In this document: positions 6,706 through 61,610 of the stretch, one piece after another
Numbering within the stretch: the first letter of the stretch is position 1
How the letters are laid out: each line of letters opens with the position of its first letter
Source: Minisyncoccota bacterium
GTDB taxonomy: Bacteria; Patescibacteriota; Minisyncoccia; Phycocordibacterales; UBA9973
Direction: 5' to 3'
NCBI GenBank assembly: GCA_018061145.1
Contig: JAGOUR010000002.1
Span: 1,939 to 65,938, forward strand
DNA: 64,000 nt
Program-made: the position numbers and the translations under genes
The notes under the pieces: generated by a model
Told to the model about the DNA's origin: nothing
Databases searched by the model: none
What the model saw: only the letters and a program-made list of their open reading frames with translations

Positions 6706-6707
6706 AT

Positions 6708-6738
6708 CCCCAGCCCAAGGCCTGGCCTTGGGCTGGGG
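6708..6738. repeat. GC-rich perfect palindrome (REP-like element)
   Basis: CCCCAGCCCAAGGCC-T-GGCCTTGGGCTGGGG in an otherwise AT-rich intergenic region. It shares CCCCAG...CTGGGG ends with the elements at 8603, 59109 and 59818. Confidence 0.6.
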
Positions 6739-6833
6739 ACATTATACTATATTTAAATATCAACATATTCTACATACTTGACTTTTATACATAAATATGC
6801 TATACTACTGTCGAACCACTAAATCGGTTAATT

Positions 6834-7225: not shown

Positions 7226-7480
7226 TTACCCGATTAGTGCTAATTTACCCGCTTTTGAAAGCTTCTTTATCCTAGCCTCTTCCACAGATGCAGATGAGCG
7301 GTCTTTGTATCGTTTTGAATATACGAGAGTGACTGGCCGACGTGCGCTAGTATACTTGGCACCCACAGGACCCGTATTGTGCTCGGCTACTCGTCGAGAT
7401 AAATCCGTCGTGATACCAGTGTAGAGTGTGCCGTCGGCACACTCTACTATGTATACAAAATATTTTTTGCTTTTAATCAT
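7226..7480 (-). CDS. GIY-YIG nuclease-domain protein (UPF0213/YhbQ-like)
   Basis: YFVYIVECADGTLYTGITTDLSRRVAEHN is a GIY-YIG core of the small standalone type. Confidence 0.8.
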   Translation of the reverse strand: MIKSKKYFVYIVECADGTLYTGITTDLSRRVAEHNTGPVGAKYTSARRPVTLVYSKRYKDRSSASVEEARIKKLSKAGKLALIG

Positions 7481-8581: not shown

Positions 8582-8602
8582 ATGATTATTATATACCAAA
8601 AA

Positions 8603-8640
8603 ATCCCCCAGTCCCAGGCCCGGCCTGGGATTGGGGGATT
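8603..8640. repeat. GC-rich near-perfect palindrome (REP-like), doubling as a terminator for the zinc-ribbon gene
   Basis: ATCCCCCAGTCCCAGGCC-C-GGCCTGGGATTGGGGGAT with one mismatch. It is closely similar to the 6708 element. Confidence 0.6.
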
Positions 8641-8645
8641 TAAAT

Positions 8646-8909
8646 TTATTTATTCTTCCAGCGTGGGGCAAAGCGGATCATCCATGTATAGAACTTTGAT
8701 TCTATATATCCCATACCGTGACTGCGCATTGCTTCGTAGCAAGCTTTTTGGAAACCTTTTAGGTCATCCCCCTCGTAGGAAAATTTGCCATTGTTAAAGC
8801 AATAGCTACAATGCCTTTCATTTTCTCTCTTGTCACCCAAAGGATCCTTTGAAAAAGGCATCAGGCAACTCTCGCACGCATTACACTTTTTTGATTTATT
8901 TTCTTCCAT
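8646..8909 (-). CDS. putative zinc-ribbon domain protein
   Basis: CNACESCLMPF...HCSYCFNNGKF resembles the putative zinc ribbon Zn_ribbon_2. Confidence 0.5.
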   Translation of the reverse strand: MEENKSKKCNACESCLMPFSKDPLGDKRENERHCSYCFNNGKFSYEGDDLKGFQKACYEAMRSHGMGYIESKFYTWMIRFAPRWKNK

Positions 8910-43672: not shown

Positions 43673-45073
43673 TTATTTAAATTTCTTTACTAATTTTACA
43701 AATTCGTCATTGCGCTCATATTCATTGTTGTATTGAGAGAAAGAAGAAAAGGCTGGAGAGAACAGAATAATGTCGCCCTTTTTTGCAGATGAAGTAGCAG
43801 TATCAAATGCCTGCTTTAAATTTTCAGTCTTTATACTTTCCACCTTCAACTTCCGGATAGGGCCTAAAGCGCTATCTGAGATTAACTTATTAGTACCTGT
43901 ACCTGGAATAGTCACTACCAATTTACAATATTTATTAATAGCTTTTACAAAATCTGTTACCGGAATGTTCTTATCATTCCCACCACAAATAAGTATTATT
44001 CTTTTCTCCGCTAGGTCTTTCCTAGCGGAGGTTGCTAAAGCTTGTAAACCAGAAATAGTTGCCTCTGGAGTAGTAGCATTATTGTCATTGTAGATCTTTA
44101 TTCCGCGGATATTTTTCACGAGTTCCAGGCGACCTTCGAGTCCCCCAAAATCTTTCACAGCTTTTTTGATTTTTGACTCTGGTATACCAAAAATTTTTAC
44201 TACCTCGACAGCGCAGGCCATATTCTCCATCTGATGAACACCCGGTACTGCGAACTTCCAATCCGATACTGTATTTGGCTTTACTACTACGAGCTTGCTC
44301 TGTATATCTTTTGGTATCAATTTCTTCATACCCGGACTGATCACTAGTGTATCCCCCGCCTTTTGATATTTAAAAATATTGGCCTTGTCGGCAAAGTATA
44401 GGTCCATATTGTCCCGATAGTAATTCATATGGTCGGTCATAAAGCTAGTGAAGACAGAAATATGCGGAGAAAAACCATGTTCACCTGTCCCAAGAAACGA
44501 ATGTGGAGTGGGACCAAAACCTTGGAGCTGCCATGAATCGAGCTCTGCCACGAGGATATCTCCATCTTTTACTTTTGAAAGAAGTGGGAGTGTCGCTACA
44601 CCGCGTACATTGCCACCAATGAAGACACTCTTGTTTAAAAATTTCTCTTGAGATTTTAATATCTCGTAGATCAAGTTTGTCGTCATGGATTTTCCACGAG
44701 TACCAGTGACTCCAATGATTTGCACACCTGGTGCACACTTTGCAAAGAGTGATACATCCATCTCGATCGGAATATTGTTCTTCATCGCCTCGGCGATAAA
44801 TACAGAATCCATAGGCACACCTGCAGATTTAACAATCATATCCCTATCACGAAAATCCTCGAGCCTATGCTCGCCTAATACGAATTTTATATTTGGGAAT
44901 TTAGAGAGGGCTTTTACTGAAGTTGCTAATTGATCAGAATTCTTCAGATCAGTCACTATCAAATCAGCCCCACACTGTGCAAGGAATTTGGTATAACCTA
45001 GGCCTCGACCGAGTAGTCCTAGTCCCATAATCGTTATTTTTTTGTCCTTAAATAGATTCTTGTAGTTTTTCAT
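43673..45073 (-). CDS. murD: UDP-N-acetylmuramoylalanine--D-glutamate ligase; start at the internal MKNYKNL
   Basis: ITIMGLGLLGRG, GVTGTRGKS. The longer ORF-track entry reads through a terminator hairpin. Confidence 0.85.
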   Translation of the reverse strand: MKNYKNLFKDKKITIMGLGLLGRGLGYTKFLAQCGADLIVTDLKNSDQLATSVKALSKFPNIKFVLGEHRLEDFRDRDMIVKSAGVPMDSVFIAEAMKNNIPIEMDVSLFAKCAPGVQIIGVTGTRGKSMTTNLIYEILKSQEKFLNKSVFIGGNVRGVATLPLLSKVKDGDILVAELDSWQLQGFGPTPHSFLGTGEHGFSPHISVFTSFMTDHMNYYRDNMDLYFADKANIFKYQKAGDTLVISPGMKKLIPKDIQSKLVVVKPNTVSDWKFAVPGVHQMENMACAVEVVKIFGIPESKIKKAVKDFGGLEGRLELVKNIRGIKIYNDNNATTPEATISGLQALATSARKDLAEKRIILICGGNDKNIPVTDFVKAINKYCKLVVTIPGTGTNKLISDSALGPIRKLKVESIKTENLKQAFDTATSSAKKGDIILFSPAFSSFSQYNNEYERNDEFVKLVKKFK

Positions 45074-45114
45074 TGAGAGCTCATTATAACACAAAACACC
45101 GTATTTTAAACAAA

Positions 45115-45148
45115 AAGAAAACAGCCCTAGGAGCTGTTCTTTTTTAAA
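45115..45148. terminator. hairpin terminator between murE and murD
   Basis: AAAACAGCC-CTAGG-AGCTGTTCTTTTTT. Confidence 0.5.
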
Positions 45149-45162
45149 AAAAATTATTTGGA

Positions 45163-45408
45163 CTAATGTCCTTGTCTTGGGTAGTTGCCACCATGGCGAC
45201 CTTGCCCGGAGCATTTACCGCCACGTACACCATCTTCTTCATTGTGATGAGTGCCTGTTTCGATATTTTCAATTCTCTCATTATATCCCTCATCCATCTT
45301 TGTATGAGGAACCTTGGCATCTCCATTTTCAGCTGGAGTAACTGTTTCTTTATTTGGCATAGGTTTGGGATTTTTTACAATCATCACATTTAAAAAACAA
45401 AATGTCAA
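45163..45408 (-). CDS. possible small G/H/E-rich protein (73-81 aa) in the murE-murD gap
   Basis: ORF only. It ends just before a terminator. Confidence 0.2.
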   Translation of the reverse strand: MTFCFLNVMIVKNPKPMPNKETVTPAENGDAKVPHTKMDEGYNERIENIETGTHHNEEDGVRGGKCSGQGRHGGNYPRQGH

Positions 45409-55146: not shown

Positions 55147-55188
55147 TATTTTTTAATTATAACAAATATAAAATTAAAAACGATAGTG

Positions 55189-55260
55189 TGCCCTCACCCT
55201 GAGTCGAACAGGGATCTATTCCTTAGGACGGAACTGTTCTATCCATTGAACTATGAGGGC
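55189..55260 (-). tRNA. tRNA-Arg (CCU), no encoded CCA
   Basis: Manual fold: acceptor GCCCUCA/UGAGGGC, anticodon stem GUUCC/GGAAU with loop GUCCUAA, T arm CCCUG-UUCGACU-CAGGG. Confidence 0.65.
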
Positions 55261-55263
55261 ATA

Positions 55264-55286
55264 AAAGCGCCTATATAGGCGCTTTT
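55264..55286. terminator. hairpin
   Basis: AAAAGCGCC-TATATA-GGCGCTTTT. Confidence 0.55.
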
Positions 55287-58552: not shown

Positions 58553-59101
58553 TTAATTTTCAAACTTTTCTAGCTCTTTAATCCATTTTTCATAATTAGG
58601 TCTTGCAATTTCTTTTCCCATTGATGATGAAATTCGATTAAACATCCAATCTAATTTTTCTTTTACTTTACAATGTCCTTCAATAGGTGCTTTTTTATTT
58701 ACAAACATTTCTGCATTGGTTTCAAAGAAACTTATAGAATCTGCATCCATGAGAGCATTTTGTTCTTCATCTCCTCCGACTTCATGTTTACTTATAAGAT
58801 TTACAACTTTATTAATTACCTCTTCTGGAATATTTTCTTTCTGCAAAAAATCGAACATTATTTTTCCACCTTTTTCTTGATGATTTTTAAGGAATTTTTG
58901 ATCTAAATAATTTTCAGGAACTATTTCATTTTCAGAACGAAAAGCTCTTTCAATGTCATGTGAATAAGCAGCTATCTTATGAGCTTCCGTAATATTTGGA
59001 ATAAATTTTTCATACCAATATACAGTACGCTCGAAATGAGCTTTTTGTTTACCTTTAAATGATTGATCTACATATTCAACTGTTTTATTATAAATATCCA
59101 T
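58553..59101 (-). CDS. hypothetical protein, possibly an HD-domain-like hydrolase
   Basis: AAYSHDIER is an H..HD-like motif. Weak. Confidence 0.35.
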   Translation of the reverse strand: MDIYNKTVEYVDQSFKGKQKAHFERTVYWYEKFIPNITEAHKIAAYSHDIERAFRSENEIVPENYLDQKFLKNHQEKGGKIMFDFLQKENIPEEVINKVVNLISKHEVGGDEEQNALMDADSISFFETNAEMFVNKKAPIEGHCKVKEKLDWMFNRISSSMGKEIARPNYEKWIKELEKFEN

Positions 59102-59108
59102 ATTTTTT

Positions 59109-59136
59109 CCCAGCCAGGGCTTTAGGCCCTGTCTGG
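59109..59136. repeat. REP-like palindrome, left flank of the RayT-like gene; it overlaps the last four codons and the stop
   Basis: CCCAGCCAGGGC-TTTAG-GCCCTGTCTGG. It is the reverse-complement orientation of the 59818 element (loop TTTAG versus CTAAA). Confidence 0.65.
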
Positions 59137-59811
59137 AAGATTATCTTCATCTTTTAATGAAGTCTTTCCTCTTTCTTTTCTAATAATTGAAACAATTTCT
59201 TTGCAATGTTTTTCAAATTTATTGCTTCCACCAAAAATTTCCAGAACTCTCTCTCCTTCTTCTTTGTCTATTATTTTAAATTTATTATTTTTATATTCAA
59301 AATCCCCAGAAAAGATTAAATCTTTTTTAGATTCAGGAATATCATGGATTTCATAATTATGATTTGTATACCCTAAAAGTTTATTAAAATAATTTTCATC
59401 ATTAATTAAATGTGACTTGAAAGTTCCCTGGAATAGTGATCCTGTGCGATTATTTTTTACATTAAAATACGAAGTATACCCACTTTGTAATTTTTGCATA
59501 AATTTTGCAATACCTCCATCAATTGACTGTTTTAAAATAAAGTGAAAATGATTTGGATTCAAACAATATCCAATAATAGAAACCAGTGGTTCTCTAGATA
59601 AGGCTTTAGGTCCTATCTCTTTAGACTTCCTTAAATTAGACAAACTAATTATTGTATTAATTTGATTAAATTCAATTACACTTTCAATAAATCTATAGAC
59701 ATCATTTTTGTCACTAAAAATATCACGCTTATCCACTCCACGATTGTAAATATGATAATATTGATTTGTAATTAGAGGTTGTTTCCTCATGATTTTATTA
59801 TAACACAACAA
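59122..59811 (-). mobile_element. IS200-like HUH-Y1 transposase of the REP-associated (RayT, COG1943) type, 229 aa
   Basis: YHIYNRGVDKRDIFSDKNDVYRFIE, then GYCLNPNHFHFIL (HUH), then GYTSYF and GSLFQGTFKS. This matches the RayT/IS200 TnpA motif order. It has a C-terminal extension. Confidence 0.7.
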
Positions 59812-59817
59812 ATAAAT

Positions 59818-59848
59818 CCCCAGATAGGGCCTAAAGCCCTATCTGGGG
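59818..59848. repeat. REP-like palindrome, right flank of the RayT-like gene
   Basis: CCCCAGATAGGGC-CTAAA-GCCCTATCTGGGG, a perfect 13-bp stem. Confidence 0.65.
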
Positions 59849-59849
59849 A

Positions 59850-61610
59850 TTATTCTATAAATCCACCGACTTGGTGATTCCAGAGATCGGAGTACTGTCC
59901 ACCCTTTTCTAGAAGTTCAGCATGAGTACCCTCTTCGACGATTTTACCGTCTTCCAGGACTATTATCCGGTCCATCTTTTGAATAGTTGAGAGGCGGTGA
60001 GCAATGACGATAGTAGTCTTGTTTTTCATAATCTCATTGAATGCGTCTTGGATATACTGCTCTGAGATACTATCCAATGCACTCGTAGCTTCATCGAGGA
60101 TAAATATCGGACTATTTTTCAAGATTGCACGAGCGATAGCCACACGCTGACGCTCGCCACCAGAGAGCTTTACTCCACGCTCACCTACATATGTCTCGTA
60201 TTTATTTGGTAGCTTTTCTATAAATCCATGAGCTCTGGCTTTCTTGGCTGCAGAAATAATTTCTTTGTCTGTGGCGTCTTGTTTTCCATAAGATATATTC
60301 TCACGTATTGTTCGATGGAATAATACAGACTCCTGAGGGACATACGATATAGCACTACGTAGATCATCCTGAGTCACATTGCGGACATCTTGCCCGTCGA
60401 TAGTAATACCACCACCATCAACATCTGAAAATCTCAGAATCAAATTTACAAAAGTAGATTTACCTGCACCAGAGTGACCGACGAGCCCAATACGCTCGCC
60501 AGGCTTGATATCGAGATTAAAATTTGTAAAAATTTCTTCATTGTTTTTATATTTAAAACATACATCCTTAAAAACAAGATGCCCTTTTTTCATTTTTAAT
60601 TTTTCTGGATTTACTGGATCTGTTACATCTTGAGATACTTCAAATATGTCGATCATCTCTTTCATATCGGCAGAATATTTCATGAATTTAGTAAGTGCAT
60701 TACCCAAATTCCAAAGTCGATCAAATATGATAACCATATAAGTTTGAATCAGGACCACTGTACCAGTGCTAATCTCCCCTGCTAGCCAGAATTTTATCAT
60801 GAAGTAAAGAATACTACTCTGAGTTATAAATACCAGAGTTCCCTGGAGTGCATCTATTCTATTTCCAAAAAACCAAGCCCTGCGACTCTTGAGAGCGGCA
60901 TTCTCTACTATCTCATCGAATGCTTTAATTTCAGGTTTACCAGAAGAAAATATTTTTACCGCCAATATATTCCCAAAGATATCAGCCAATCTTCCCCCAA
61001 TTTTTGAATCAGCCTGAGCCTCCTCTAGATCATATTTAACCTTTTTCCCAACAAAAAAAGAAACCAAGCTTATAAATACAACGATGAAAGCTAAGAATAT
61101 ATATGTAAGGAAAACAGACTGATGATACATAACCACAAAAATACCTATGAGTGAGATAAAAACACTCCAGAATTCATATATAAAAATATCATACATAGAC
61201 TCAAAAGACCCCACGAATCTACGTGATTTTGTTACGAGTGAACCAGAAAAAGTATTCGCAAAAAAAGTCTGAGAATGTGATTGGATTTTCTGGAATGCAA
61301 ATTTTCTTAAATCGCTGATCATCTTTATCTCAAAAGAAAGATGCATATATTTACTCAATCTACCGACAATCAAGAGAGCAAATCCAACAGATATGATCAT
61401 GATGACTAGATGGGTTATTGGTTCAACCAAAGACACACGATCCACTCCAGCGATAGAAATAGAATCAATAATCTTTTTAAATAAAAACGGTCGGACGACT
61501 GCATCCAAAACAGTCCTAAGCGCAAAAATAAACAAAATCAAAAAGAATGCGAATTTATATTTTCGCATTTGAGGCCAAATATATTTTAAAATACTTGAGA
61601 ATAGTGACAT
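59850..61610 (-). CDS. ABC exporter, fused permease and ATPase (MsbA-like)
   Basis: 6-TM domain, Walker A GHSGAGKST, signature LSGGERQRVAIARA, Walker B ILDEATSALD. Confidence 0.85.
   Translation of the reverse strand: MSLFSSILKYIWPQMRKYKFAFFLILFIFALRTVLDAVVRPFLFKKIIDSISIAGVDRVSLVEPITHLVIMIISVGFALLIVGRLSKYMHLSFEIKMISDLRKFAFQKIQSHSQTFFANTFSGSLVTKSRRFVGSFESMYDIFIYEFWSVFISLIGIFVVMYHQSVFLTYIFLAFIVVFISLVSFFVGKKVKYDLEEAQADSKIGGRLADIFGNILAVKIFSSGKPEIKAFDEIVENAALKSRRAWFFGNRIDALQGTLVFITQSSILYFMIKFWLAGEISTGTVVLIQTYMVIIFDRLWNLGNALTKFMKYSADMKEMIDIFEVSQDVTDPVNPEKLKMKKGHLVFKDVCFKYKNNEEIFTNFNLDIKPGERIGLVGHSGAGKSTFVNLILRFSDVDGGGITIDGQDVRNVTQDDLRSAISYVPQESVLFHRTIRENISYGKQDATDKEIISAAKKARAHGFIEKLPNKYETYVGERGVKLSGGERQRVAIARAILKNSPIFILDEATSALDSISEQYIQDAFNEIMKNKTTIVIAHRLSTIQKMDRIIVLEDGKIVEEGTHAELLEKGGQYSDLWNHQVGGFIE

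Follow-up and report, generated by a model that had tools for sequence, protein, structure and literature searches.

A 64-kb stretch of DNA from an ultra-small Patescibacterial (CPR) bacterium (the whole of the sequence analysed, hereafter the window) raises the question of whether a transposase-like gene and the GC-rich palindromes that bracket it form a REP/RAYT-type system, as an original prediction made from this DNA had proposed, or whether the palindromes are host elements, the ends of an insertion sequence or ordinary terminators. The gene is bracketed by a palindrome that also lies within it and is scattered through related genomes, and the locus therefore probably represents a REP/RAYT-type system, here in the Patescibacterial class Paceibacteria. 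A full-text search returned no paper linking REP, RAYT or REPIN to CPR/Patescibacteria, in agreement with the prediction's statement that such systems are essentially undescribed in AT-rich small-genome lineages.

The encoded protein

The predicted 229-aa ORF (59122..59811, - strand) was found in the sequence with all of its reported motifs (YHIYNRG..DIF, NPNHFHFIL and SLFQGTFKS). Homologues start at M8 (ATG at 59790), placing the RAYT-like Y1 HUH protein gene at 59122..59790 (- strand), with 222 aa and a TAA stop codon at 59122-59124. The proposed kinship with Y1 transposases was supported by Pfam PF01797 (Y1_Tnp), which matched above its cut-off (25.7 bits against 23, E 1.4e-5, profile positions 39-109 of 121). 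In the 222-aa numbering, the HUH motif is H81-F-H83 and the catalytic tyrosine is Y141; all three residues are at least 95% conserved among 55 metagenomic homologues and invariant among 121 database homologues. The protein thus combines the HUH metal-binding motif with a single catalytic Tyr on a C-terminal helix, the combination that marks the Y1 HUH superfamily. An AF2 model built from the 121-sequence, two-clade alignment reached a pLDDT of 87.5, with values below 50 in residues 58-65 only, and superseded a poor earlier model from 14 close homologues (pLDDT 55). Comparison of this model with solved structures revealed a ferredoxin-like HUH fold matching TnpA; the nearest structure was an active REP nuclease, and the IS608 and ISDra2 TnpA folds were likewise similar. 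The family profile had no significant sequence match in the PDB, such that the structural relationship was recovered by fold comparison alone.

Two RAYT signatures are not matched. The equivalog model NCBIfam NF047646 (REP_Tyr_transpos) scored 27.9 bits against a curated cut-off of 80, and the class-2 signature Y---NP plus W[EQ] (Quentin 2018, Table 1) is absent; the Y motif reads GY[VT]NxN[YN]xxH, and FQ (SLFQG) stands where W[EQ] would be expected. The 222 residues include a helical C-terminal tail of approximately 70 aa, and no HTH domain was detected in the protein by Pfam. Homologues share 65-77% identity among many Paceibacteria species, the databases hold thousands of members (119 clusters at 50% identity, E<=1e-30), and divergent paralogues coexist in some genomes. 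The protein is probably a domesticated Y1 HUH protein of the RAYT kind, inherited for the most part vertically and presumably acting as a single-strand-DNA nuclease/transposase.

Palindromes on the gene and its putative promoter

The inverted pair of flanking palindromes described in the original prediction is real and is a conserved trait of the gene family. The 5' cognate palindrome has a full stem at 59815..59851, reading AATCCCCAGATAGGGC-CTAAA-GCCCTATCTGGGGATT on the + strand, with the core CCCCAGATAGGGC-CTAAA-GCCCTATCTGGGG at 59818-59848 (+). On one side of it is the stop codon (59850-59852) of the ABC-transporter gene upstream, and on the other the RAYT promoter. The palindrome is well supported (CM 53.6 bits, E 7e-14; ssDNA fold -19 kcal/mol, z -7.5), and homologues carry a hairpin at the same site. 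Its - strand is terminator-like, being followed by a T-rich tract, and scores as the terminator of the ABC gene. The 3' cognate palindrome, CCAGACAGGGC-CTAAA-GCCCTGGCTGG on the - strand, spans 59107..59139 (core 59110-59136; CM 36.7 bits, E 1e-8; ssDNA fold -12.1 kcal/mol, z -4.7) and stops 8 nt short of the following gene (DUF4202, start at 59101). As had been proposed, its left arm codes for the peptide PDRA; the stop codon TAA lies in its loop. Homologues keep both the C-terminal LPDR/LPDS peptide and the in-loop stop codon (TAA or TGA).

A third, decayed copy was detected in-frame within the gene at 59595..59619 (- strand, GAGATAGGACCTAAAGCCTTATCTA), a feature that the prediction did not contain. 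It is identical to the 3' copy at 18 of 25 positions (CM 14 bits, E 0.09), codes for ..EIGPKALSR.. in a disordered surface loop, and has no stable fold in the window genome. At the orthologous site, 47 of 72 homologues form a hairpin, compared with 4.6% of background windows. Searching Rfam at the gathering threshold assigned the hairpins to no known RNA family, tRNAs being the only matches.

The resemblance between the flanking hairpins could in principle be accidental, each being an ordinary, unrelated intrinsic terminator; their location at the gene ends and the T-rich tract behind the 5' hairpin on the - strand are what such elements would display. This explanation was rejected as scarcely credible: a degenerate pattern for the flanking palindromes matched the window four times against 0.00 expected from 100 shuffles, the tract that follows the 3' copy is an A-tract rather than a T-tract, and homologous loci contain identical 25-mers in triplicate, which also appear across at least 43 assemblies.

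The arrangement of three hairpins is a property of the family. In a protein-based sample of homologues, all three hairpins (upstream, internal at about +190 nt, and at the stop) with the same core were present in 24 of 54 complete loci and two in 11 more, such that 35 of 54 loci held at least two matching hairpins. Across the family the internal hairpin occupies a fixed location at about +170 to +230 nt, upstream of HuH. In each of the homologous loci L005, L007 and L008, three 25-nt copies that are identical on one strand or the other lie at -40/-54, at +168/+186 and at the stop, with the 5' copy inverted in L005 and L008. The cognate site is a GC-rich perfect palindrome of 25-37 nt with, in this clade, the core C-CAGAyAGsssC-TAA-GsssCTrTCTG-G. 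Between clades the hairpin positions are kept and the hairpin sequence is unrelated, as exemplified by the hairpin ATTCGGACGT-TGG-ACGTCCGAAT of another clade; a distant paralogue carries its own hairpin type, and REPtron-like hairpin clusters lie beside the gene in other clades. Double-sided changes were counted in 11 of 12 stem pairs, and complementary stem pairs amounted to 87.5% versus 57.6% after shuffling, both values carrying the ascertainment bias of an alignment centred on detected hairpins.

The 5' palindrome also adjoins a putative promoter. An extended -10 element (TGTTATAAT) can be read at 59797..59805 (- strand), and 6 nt separate the end of its hexamer from the ATG, suggesting that the mRNA is leaderless or near-leaderless. 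The -35 region, just upstream of this element, is occupied by the 5' palindrome. A TAnnnT hexamer ending at -10 to -5 was present in 51 of 62 unique homologue upstream regions (exactly at -7 in 37), compared with 24 of 208 controls, and the TG was present in 39 of 62 compared with 4 of 208. In homologues the hairpin either adjoins the extended -10 element or sits up to approximately 20 nt upstream of it.

Copies away from the gene

A genome scan identified at least 87 strict copies of the 25-nt core in at least 43 Patescibacterial assemblies, where loci were 8-kb blocks and all copy counts are lower bounds. Among the matches listed, most dispersed copies were in 8-kb blocks without the gene and mostly intergenic. 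Copies were few: the MAGs had at least 3-7 strict ones apiece, and almost none lay within 10 kb on either side of L005, L007 and L008. A dispersed copy carried the gene-linked variant of its own genome in 11 of 19 cases, compared with 11% for other genomes (permutation p=0.0007; among the matches listed). The conserved flanks, the dispersal and this variant matching uphold the REP/RAYT-like part of the original prediction. The REPIN part was not upheld: no REPIN or BIME doublets were seen, the dispersed copies of clade A being singletons in their 8-kb blocks. The flank profile of 60 dispersed copies showed no GT[AG]G-type foot or other asymmetric flank, just C/G at +-1 and a frequent stem-extending CCC/GGG. 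A partial adjacent duplicate was found beside 3 of 85 dispersed copies, and such "stutter" duplications were set aside as uninformative about a copying mechanism.

Within the 64 kb, one copy lies away from the gene, in-frame in murD (43850..43882, +; murD ORF 43673-45214, -). This copy, absent from the original prediction, matches 24 of 27 pattern positions (0 expected; CM 32.6 bits, E 1.8e-7), has a partly decayed stem and codes for ..SDSALGPIR... The window MurD has six extra residues (ALGPIR) exactly at the copy, and all 21 aligned Patescibacterial orthologues are without them; one MurD (P0152) has its own unrelated six-residue insert at the same place. Solved MurD structures indicated roughly five extra residues, an ambiguous result by itself that was settled by the Patescibacterial orthologues, and at the level of aligned sequences the murD copy is a lineage-specific insertion. 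Four genomes also have an in-frame copy in purL; its site is orthologous in all of them, and the copies comprise at least two core variants.

Two further window palindromes had been assigned to the same family. Both exist, fold very stably and have CCCCAG/CTGGGG ends. The one at 6707..6739 (TCCCCAGCCCAAGGC-CTG-GCCTTGGGCTGGGGA, between divergently oriented ORFs) also shares the stem/loop geometry of the family (CM 14.4 bits, E 0.065), and the resemblance of the one at 8601-8641 is limited to its ends (CM E 4.3). No further copy of either was found in the 1.15 Mb of low-GC DNA examined, in which 31 of 32 palindromes with CCCAG..CTGGG ends were of the REP-core type and that at 6707 was the sole exception. 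With these E values and no second copy, the predicted membership (6708-6738 and 8603-8640) was not accepted, and the 6707 palindrome is possibly a distant relative only.

Dispersed copies are often located between A- and T-tracts and have locus-specific stem extensions (mean 2.6 vs 0.7 bp). Many resemble bidirectional terminators with extensions of their own, and could be kept for host function. This observation bears on a rival explanation, in which the palindromes are host elements (bidirectional terminators, operators or cruciform sites) that spread or homogenise through ordinary recombination or gene conversion, and the protein, fully domesticated, binds hairpins or palindromes as a regulator and has ceased to move DNA. 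The conserved and functionally suggestive sites in the -35 region and at the stop codon, the scoring of the 5' copy as the ABC gene terminator, the low copy number and the strong conservation of the protein all agree with such a role. However, an invariant catalytic HUH motif and Tyr would be unexpected in a pure binder, the closest structure is an active nuclease, and the in-frame murD and purL copies, that in murD being a lineage-specific insertion, are neither terminators nor operators. The 6707 palindrome and several dispersed copies also stand in non-terminator contexts. The host-element explanation is accordingly considered rather unlikely.

Relation to known systems and proposed operation

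The layout and the size of the approximately 740-bp unit (hairpin, promoter, gene, hairpin) recall IS200, which would make it an autonomous insertion sequence with the palindromes as left and right ends. A Y1 gene with subterminal hairpins, varying gene neighbours among genomes and the fold similarity to IS608 and ISDra2 TnpA fit this idea, and ssDNA hairpin recognition is a likely mode of action in common. The IS200/IS608/ISDra2 elements are, however, autonomous, multi-copy and often plasmid-borne, with a TnpA of about 150 aa bearing Y---Q and with differing LE and RE and guide/cleavage tetranucleotides, none of which was seen in the Patescibacterial family. The gene is a single copy in the window, which holds no second Y1 paralogue; no near-identical duplicates were seen, the homologues being diverged between species and partly syntenic (the window and L007 share LepA downstream, L007 and L008 share S1/Pth upstream), and the gene was not found on IMG/VR viral contigs. 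Furthermore, the palindrome occurs alone, far from the gene, and one perfect palindrome forms the two ends, in place of distinct LE and RE with cleavage sites. An autonomous IS200-like element is therefore a very improbable description of the locus.

The REP/RAYT-type reading finds its closest parallel in the E. coli REPtron, composed of TnpA-REP (RAYT, YafM; PDB 4ER8) and REP/BIME (Nunvar 2010; Ton-Hoang 2012; Messing 2012; PMC6006769, PMC3479197). Both systems have cognate GC-rich hairpins that flank the gene in inverted orientation, mostly extragenic dispersed hairpins of the same sequence variant as those linked to the gene, and probably few gene copies. The Patescibacterial system differs in that a 5' GT[AG]G guide tetranucleotide is absent, the palindromes are perfect, with a 3-nt loop, where REPs are imperfect, the copies are tens of times fewer, and no doublets (REPINs/BIMEs) were seen. 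Its protein has FQ for WE/WQ, a Y motif without NP and the helical tail, and its gene carries an intragenic in-frame hairpin and a stop codon in the 3' hairpin loop.

Two subclasses of TnpAY1 share further traits. Subclass 2.4 (Quentin et al. 2018; Bertels group 4), known from Cyanobacteria, Bacteroidetes and others, has REPs beside and within tnpA-REP, there in a peripheral loop with the frame intact (PMC6006769), and, with about 14 per replicon, its flanking 16-mers are not abundant (PMC5581495). In contrast, the site of the Patescibacterial internal hairpin is fixed and precedes HuH, and this hairpin co-varies with its flanking counterparts. The WQ and YIxNNP motifs of subclass 2.4 are absent, as are its "long" or "double foot" REPs with a GTAG foot. 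Subclass 2.1, the TIRYT-TIRtrons (Di Nocera 2013, PMC3733652; Quentin 2018, PMC6006769), resembles the present family in its NH[YF]H and FQ motifs, its length of about 238 aa with a C-terminal tail, its flanking repeats that may overlap the gene ends ("5'ov/3'ov") and its low or moderate repeat families. That subclass has long TIRs with GGGGWSAS and HTH-type (DnaA_C-like) tails and is reported without REP-like hairpins, whereas the Patescibacterial flanks are self-complementary hairpins and the protein has no Pfam HTH and a different Y motif. Palindromes in-frame in housekeeping genes, as in murD and purL, are also known from the Rickettsia RPEs and intra-ORF REPs, and repeats can also provide a neighbouring ORF with its stop codon (PMC3733652), comparable to the TAA/TGA in the loop. 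Unlike in these intragenic palindromic elements, the stop here is in a hairpin loop of the transposase gene itself, conserved family-wide, and among the four genomes that share the purL site, two or more carry differing variants.

The following operation is proposed for the REP/RAYT-type system. The protein would bind the hairpin in single-stranded DNA or in an extruded cruciform, and Tyr141 with the HUH-bound metal would cut and rejoin at it. Such cutting and rejoining could mobilise the palindrome, seeding and homogenising a small population at intergenic, terminator-like and occasional in-frame sites (murD here, purL elsewhere). The 5' copy over the -35 region of the extended -10, leaderless promoter may serve as an autoregulatory operator and as an insulator or terminator for the upstream gene, and the other gene-borne copies would be accommodated in-frame in the disordered loop near codon 60 and around the stop codon in the 3' loop.

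A stronger version is offered tentatively, as a possible reading and not the favoured one, in which the three gene-borne hairpins form an obligatory circuit acting in cis, as opposed to REP insertions that arose by accident. It is based on the co-evolution of the family-wide, in-frame internal hairpin with the promoter-overlapping, stop-codon and dispersed copies. The enzyme would overwrite or correct cognate palindromes genome-wide through hairpin replacement or gene conversion, including those in the essential purL and murD, and would act at its own gene as well, titrating or repressing itself; streamlined CPR genomes might then keep this self-limiting hairpin-maintenance system for a host function.

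The role that RAYTs play in their hosts is an open question (PMC5581495, PMC6006769), for which the Patescibacterial family provides an unusually clean handle. The hairpin population is small enough for complete enumeration, and the three-hairpin architecture co-varies with the enzyme clade. Host genomes of this group are presumably streamlined, at approximately 1 Mb. With a conserved protein, a small hairpin set and this clade-covarying architecture, specificity switching, autoregulation and REP overwriting are directly testable. For the annotation of CPR genomes, the palindromes are relevant in that they create in-frame insertions and supply stop codons or C-terminal extensions, and they may also break CPR assemblies.

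The RAYT-like gene and its bracketing palindromes

The nearest relatives of the genes in the window, which has a G+C content of 38%, are Patescibacteria (Nomurabacteria, Paceibacterota, Minisyncoccia). The ORF originally predicted at 59122..59811(-) is present and carries every motif of the IS200/RayT series quoted for it, with one revision to its start: homologues begin at M8 (ATG 59790), as does the gene call on two Logan contigs encoding an identical product, and the RAYT-like protein is therefore 222 aa long. The anticipated Y1 HUH profile match was obtained just above threshold (Pfam Y1_Tnp, 25.7 bits vs. a gathering score of 23), whereas the NCBIfam RAYT equivalog score was far below its cut-off (27.9 vs. 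80 bits). The family is large. With the window protein as query, 2,697 database proteins matched at E<=1e-3, the top matches sharing 65-77% identity; a query from a second Paceibacterial clade, ~50% identical to it, found 3,225. Among cluster representatives searched exhaustively, 11,734 matched at E<=1e-3, of which 119 reached E<=1e-30. JGI annotation already labels family members 'REP element-mobilizing transposase RayT'. No second Y1 gene was found within the 64-kb window.

The HUH motif (H81-F-H83) and the catalytic tyrosine (Y141) are conserved across 55 metagenomic and 121 database homologues. Structure prediction gave a poor model when the alignment was shallow; with 121 sequences drawn from two clades it reached pLDDT 87.5 and pTM 0.86, and residues 58-65 are the sole disordered segment of that model. 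Relative to the classes of Quentin et al., the NHFH and FQ motifs are like those of TnpAY1 subclass 2.1, whereas the family's Y motif, GY[VT]NxN[YN], lacks the 'NP' of class 2. Under the main rival explanation, the palindromes would be terminators or operators of the host and the protein would do no more than bind them; this explanation is weakened by the invariance of the catalytic residues and by in-frame palindrome insertions in murD and purL.

The gene is indeed bracketed by two inverted palindromes, both versions of one sequence: an upstream (5') copy at 59815-59851, AATCCCCAGATAGGGC-CTAAA-GCCCTATCTGGGGATT, and a downstream (3') copy at 59110-59136, which on the gene strand (-) reads CCAGACAGGGC-CTAAA-GCCCTGGCTGG. 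As proposed, the left arm of the 3' copy encodes the terminal PDRA, with the stop codon TAA in the loop. A degenerate pattern for both palindromes had four matches in the window vs. 0.00 expected in shuffles, and single-stranded DNA folding gave -19 kcal/mol (z -7.5) for the 5' copy and -12.1 kcal/mol (z -4.7) for the 3' copy. A covariance model (CM) built from 83 palindrome copies of clade A, the window's clade of gene and palindrome, was scanned over the window without filters and recovered the 5' copy (59817-59849, 53.6 bits), the 3' copy (59107-59139, 36.7 bits), a copy within murD (43850-43882, 32.6 bits, E 1.8e-7) and a decayed internal copy (59596-59618, E 0.089); these counts for the window's own genome cover 64 kb only.

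Three hairpins and a probable leaderless promoter across the family

Each of the initial homologous loci compared (L005, L007, L008) contains an identical 25-mer three times: 40-54 nt before the start, within the CDS (+168 to +186), and across the stop codon. In L005 and L008 the 5' copy is on the other strand, and the 25-mer varies from genome to genome. Among 80 metagenome loci picked on protein similarity only, three hairpins with a common core were found in 24 of 54 complete loci and two hairpins in 11 more. In more distant clades (41-59% identity) the hairpin positions are kept with unrelated palindrome sequences, e.g., AGTGAGAGCT-TAA-AGCTCTCACT, CGTCGGGTGT-TGG-ACACCCGACG and ATTCGGACGT-TGG-ACGTCCGAAT.

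A hairpin at +140..+275 is present in 47/72 genes; the background rate in 135-nt windows is 4.6%. Across 44 aligned internal hairpins, whose windows were centred on detected hairpins and thus carry an ascertainment caveat, 11 of 12 stem pairs have double-sided changes and 87.5% of stem pairs are complementary, vs. 57.6% when shuffled and <=41% with the partner slid. The encoded peptide shifts along with the hairpin (..QIAPKALS.., ..DSDVGRPN.., ..SVRALSS..) and maps to the disordered residues 58-65; the internal site is therefore constrained as DNA or RNA and not as protein. In L204, a 41%-identical homologue (gene ~111-803), the cognate hairpin occurs twice in-frame, as RFGRPTSK at the usual internal site and as RFGRPTPK near residue 150.

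Loop orientation flips between copies (TAA/TTA, TGG/CCA). The internal copy of the window's clade nearly always retains the TAA-type loop; by our reading, a flipped TTA loop in its frame would create an in-frame TAG. The forward 3' loop always supplies a stop codon, TAA or, in three loci (L130, L150, L152), TGA, and where it is flipped to TTA (L133, L144, L156, L161) the ORF reads through into a C-terminal extension. In 14/21 clade-A loci the 5' and 3' copies are in opposite orientation, as they are in the window.

An extended -10 box near the ATG, with no Shine-Dalgarno sequence, is found family-wide (L129-L208 and the window, where it is TGTTATAAT at 59797-59805). In 37/62 unique upstream regions the end of TGnTAnnnT lies exactly 6 nt upstream of the start codon; the end falls within -10..-5 in 51/62 (vs. 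24/208 controls), and the element's TG is present in 39/62 (vs. 4/208). This spacing points to a leaderless or near-leaderless mRNA, and the sequences suggest that the RAYT-like gene is translated leaderless in Paceibacteria. The 5' hairpin abuts the extended -10 or sits up to ~20 nt upstream, and so would occupy the -35 region. The window's 5' hairpin additionally overlaps the stop codon of the ABC-transporter gene upstream and scores as that gene's terminator, and the 3' hairpin stops 8 nt short of where the next gene begins. Because the two hairpins border the RAYT-like gene within a co-directional array (MurJ, ABC transporter, RAYT, DUF4202, LepA), the gene may be insulated by its own cognate hairpins. 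The gene-borne hairpins are probably cis sites for autoregulation, by promoter occlusion, and for insulation.

Dispersed copies and the reading of the locus

A single scan of species-representative genomes with CAGNNAGSSSCTAARSSSCTNNCTG matched at least 119 8-kb blocks. Among the matches listed, 78 blocks from 43 Patescibacterial assemblies hold at least 87 palindrome copies, mainly intergenic and in most blocks without the gene, and the remaining blocks, which come mainly from high-GC or unrelated taxa, roughly match the expectation from chance plus generic terminators. Within a single MAG (taxonomic labels are the depositors' own) the strict copies number at least 3-7, spread over different contigs. 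Among the same listed matches, a quarter of the dispersed copies have stems extended by 5-12 locus-specific complementary bp, often between A- and T-tracts, and no GTAG-like foot was found. A dispersed copy is its own genome's gene-linked variant in 11/19 cases, compared with 11% for the variants of other genomes (permutation p 0.0007; listed matches). In non-A clades, additional hairpins cluster beside the gene, resembling a REPtron (a RAYT gene with its cognate REPs). A 29%-identical Y1 paralogue (L022, 486-1142) has flanking hairpins of a separate, unrelated type (ATGTCAAGGG-GCA-TCCTTGACAT and TGTCAAGG-ATGCC-CCTTGACA) in a genome that also has a CAGATAGCGCC-type palindrome. In assembly JAPLXU01, a single MAG, one contig ends (L080) and another starts (L099) inside the RAYT-like gene near the hairpins; repeated palindromes may break short-read assemblies.

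Some copies lie within host genes. In the window, the murD copy (43850-43882, stem partly decayed) is in-frame in the ORF 43673-45214 (-) and coincides with a 6-residue insertion, ALGPIR, which is missing from every one of the 21 aligned Patescibacterial MurD orthologues (in one of them an insert of unrelated sequence occupies this position) and is therefore a lineage-specific in-frame insertion. In purL (FGAM synthase), at least four genomes (L066, L098, L101, L110; e.g., L098:711-3641 (-)) carry an in-frame palindrome at one common site, the AIRS/AIRS_C/FGAR-AT linker, encoding Q[IP]APKAL[SA]V. At least two core variants occur there, L066 differing from the other three, so both arms of the palindrome have changed together at an orthologous site.

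The best-supported reading of the locus, with its established fold and catalytic residues, three-hairpin architecture and co-variation, dispersal, within-genome identity and one insertion polymorphism, is a REP/RAYT-type system. We infer that the RAYT-like protein binds and cleaves the hairpin, drives its dispersal and has a regulatory role: the Y1 HUH enzyme would recognise its cognate hairpin where DNA is single-stranded or cruciform and would cut and rejoin DNA there, which could seed and homogenise a small palindrome family. An autonomous IS200-like element is unlikely given the single copy, divergent homologues with partial synteny, the gene's absence from viral contigs, and palindromes that also occur alone. 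The flanking palindromes originally proposed stood, and dispersal was found in related genomes. Four canonical RAYT features that were tested did not turn up here (a score at the equivalog cut-off, the Y---NP motif, a GTAG foot, and doublets of the REPIN kind); the system is therefore classed as working like REP/RAYT and not as a canonical RAYT.

Precedents exist in Proteobacteria, Cyanobacteria and Bacteroidetes for RAYT genes with REPs on their flanks, stop codons supplied by REPs, intragenic REPs, in-frame REPs within subclass-2.4 tnpA-REP genes, and flanking repeats of low copy number in RAYT groups 1 and 4 (PMC6006769, PMC3733652, PMC5581495). Unlike the described systems, the Patescibacterial one has no GTAG foot, its palindromes are perfect, its internal hairpin is fixed upstream of HuH family-wide and co-varies with the other copies, its stop codon sits in the hairpin loop, and a conserved, probably leaderless promoter adjoins the hairpin. 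The lineage differs too: in agreement with the original statement that such systems are essentially undescribed in AT-rich small-genome lineages, a full-text literature search found no paper linking REP/RAYT with CPR.

Other palindromes of the window

Two further palindromes, proposed at 6708-6738 and 8603-8640 as family members, were not supported as such, with no further copy of either in the sequences compared and CM E-values of 0.065 and 4.3. The former (6707-6739, TCCCCAGCCCAAGGC-CTG-GCCTTGGGCTGGGGA) has a very stable 15-bp stem and shares the ends and geometry of the RAYT palindrome with a different core, making it a possible distant relative; it lies between divergently oriented ORFs and hence outside a terminator position. 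The latter (8601-8641, of which the CM matched 8611-8631 at noise level) has a 19-bp stem after the stop of ORF 8646-8909(-), followed on that strand by TTTTTT and a TATAAT-like box for the next gene, and has the appearance of an ordinary intrinsic terminator with a promoter behind it. Additionally, a palindrome at 55264-55285, AAAAGCGCC-TATATA-GGCGCTTTT, sits directly upstream of tRNA-Arg(CCT) (55188-55260, -; CM E 0.15) and has a GCGCC/GGCGC core similar to the inner-stem sequence of a palindrome variant from other genomes. An 84-aa ORF at 7226-7480 (-) presumably encodes a GIY-YIG (URI-type) nuclease domain protein.
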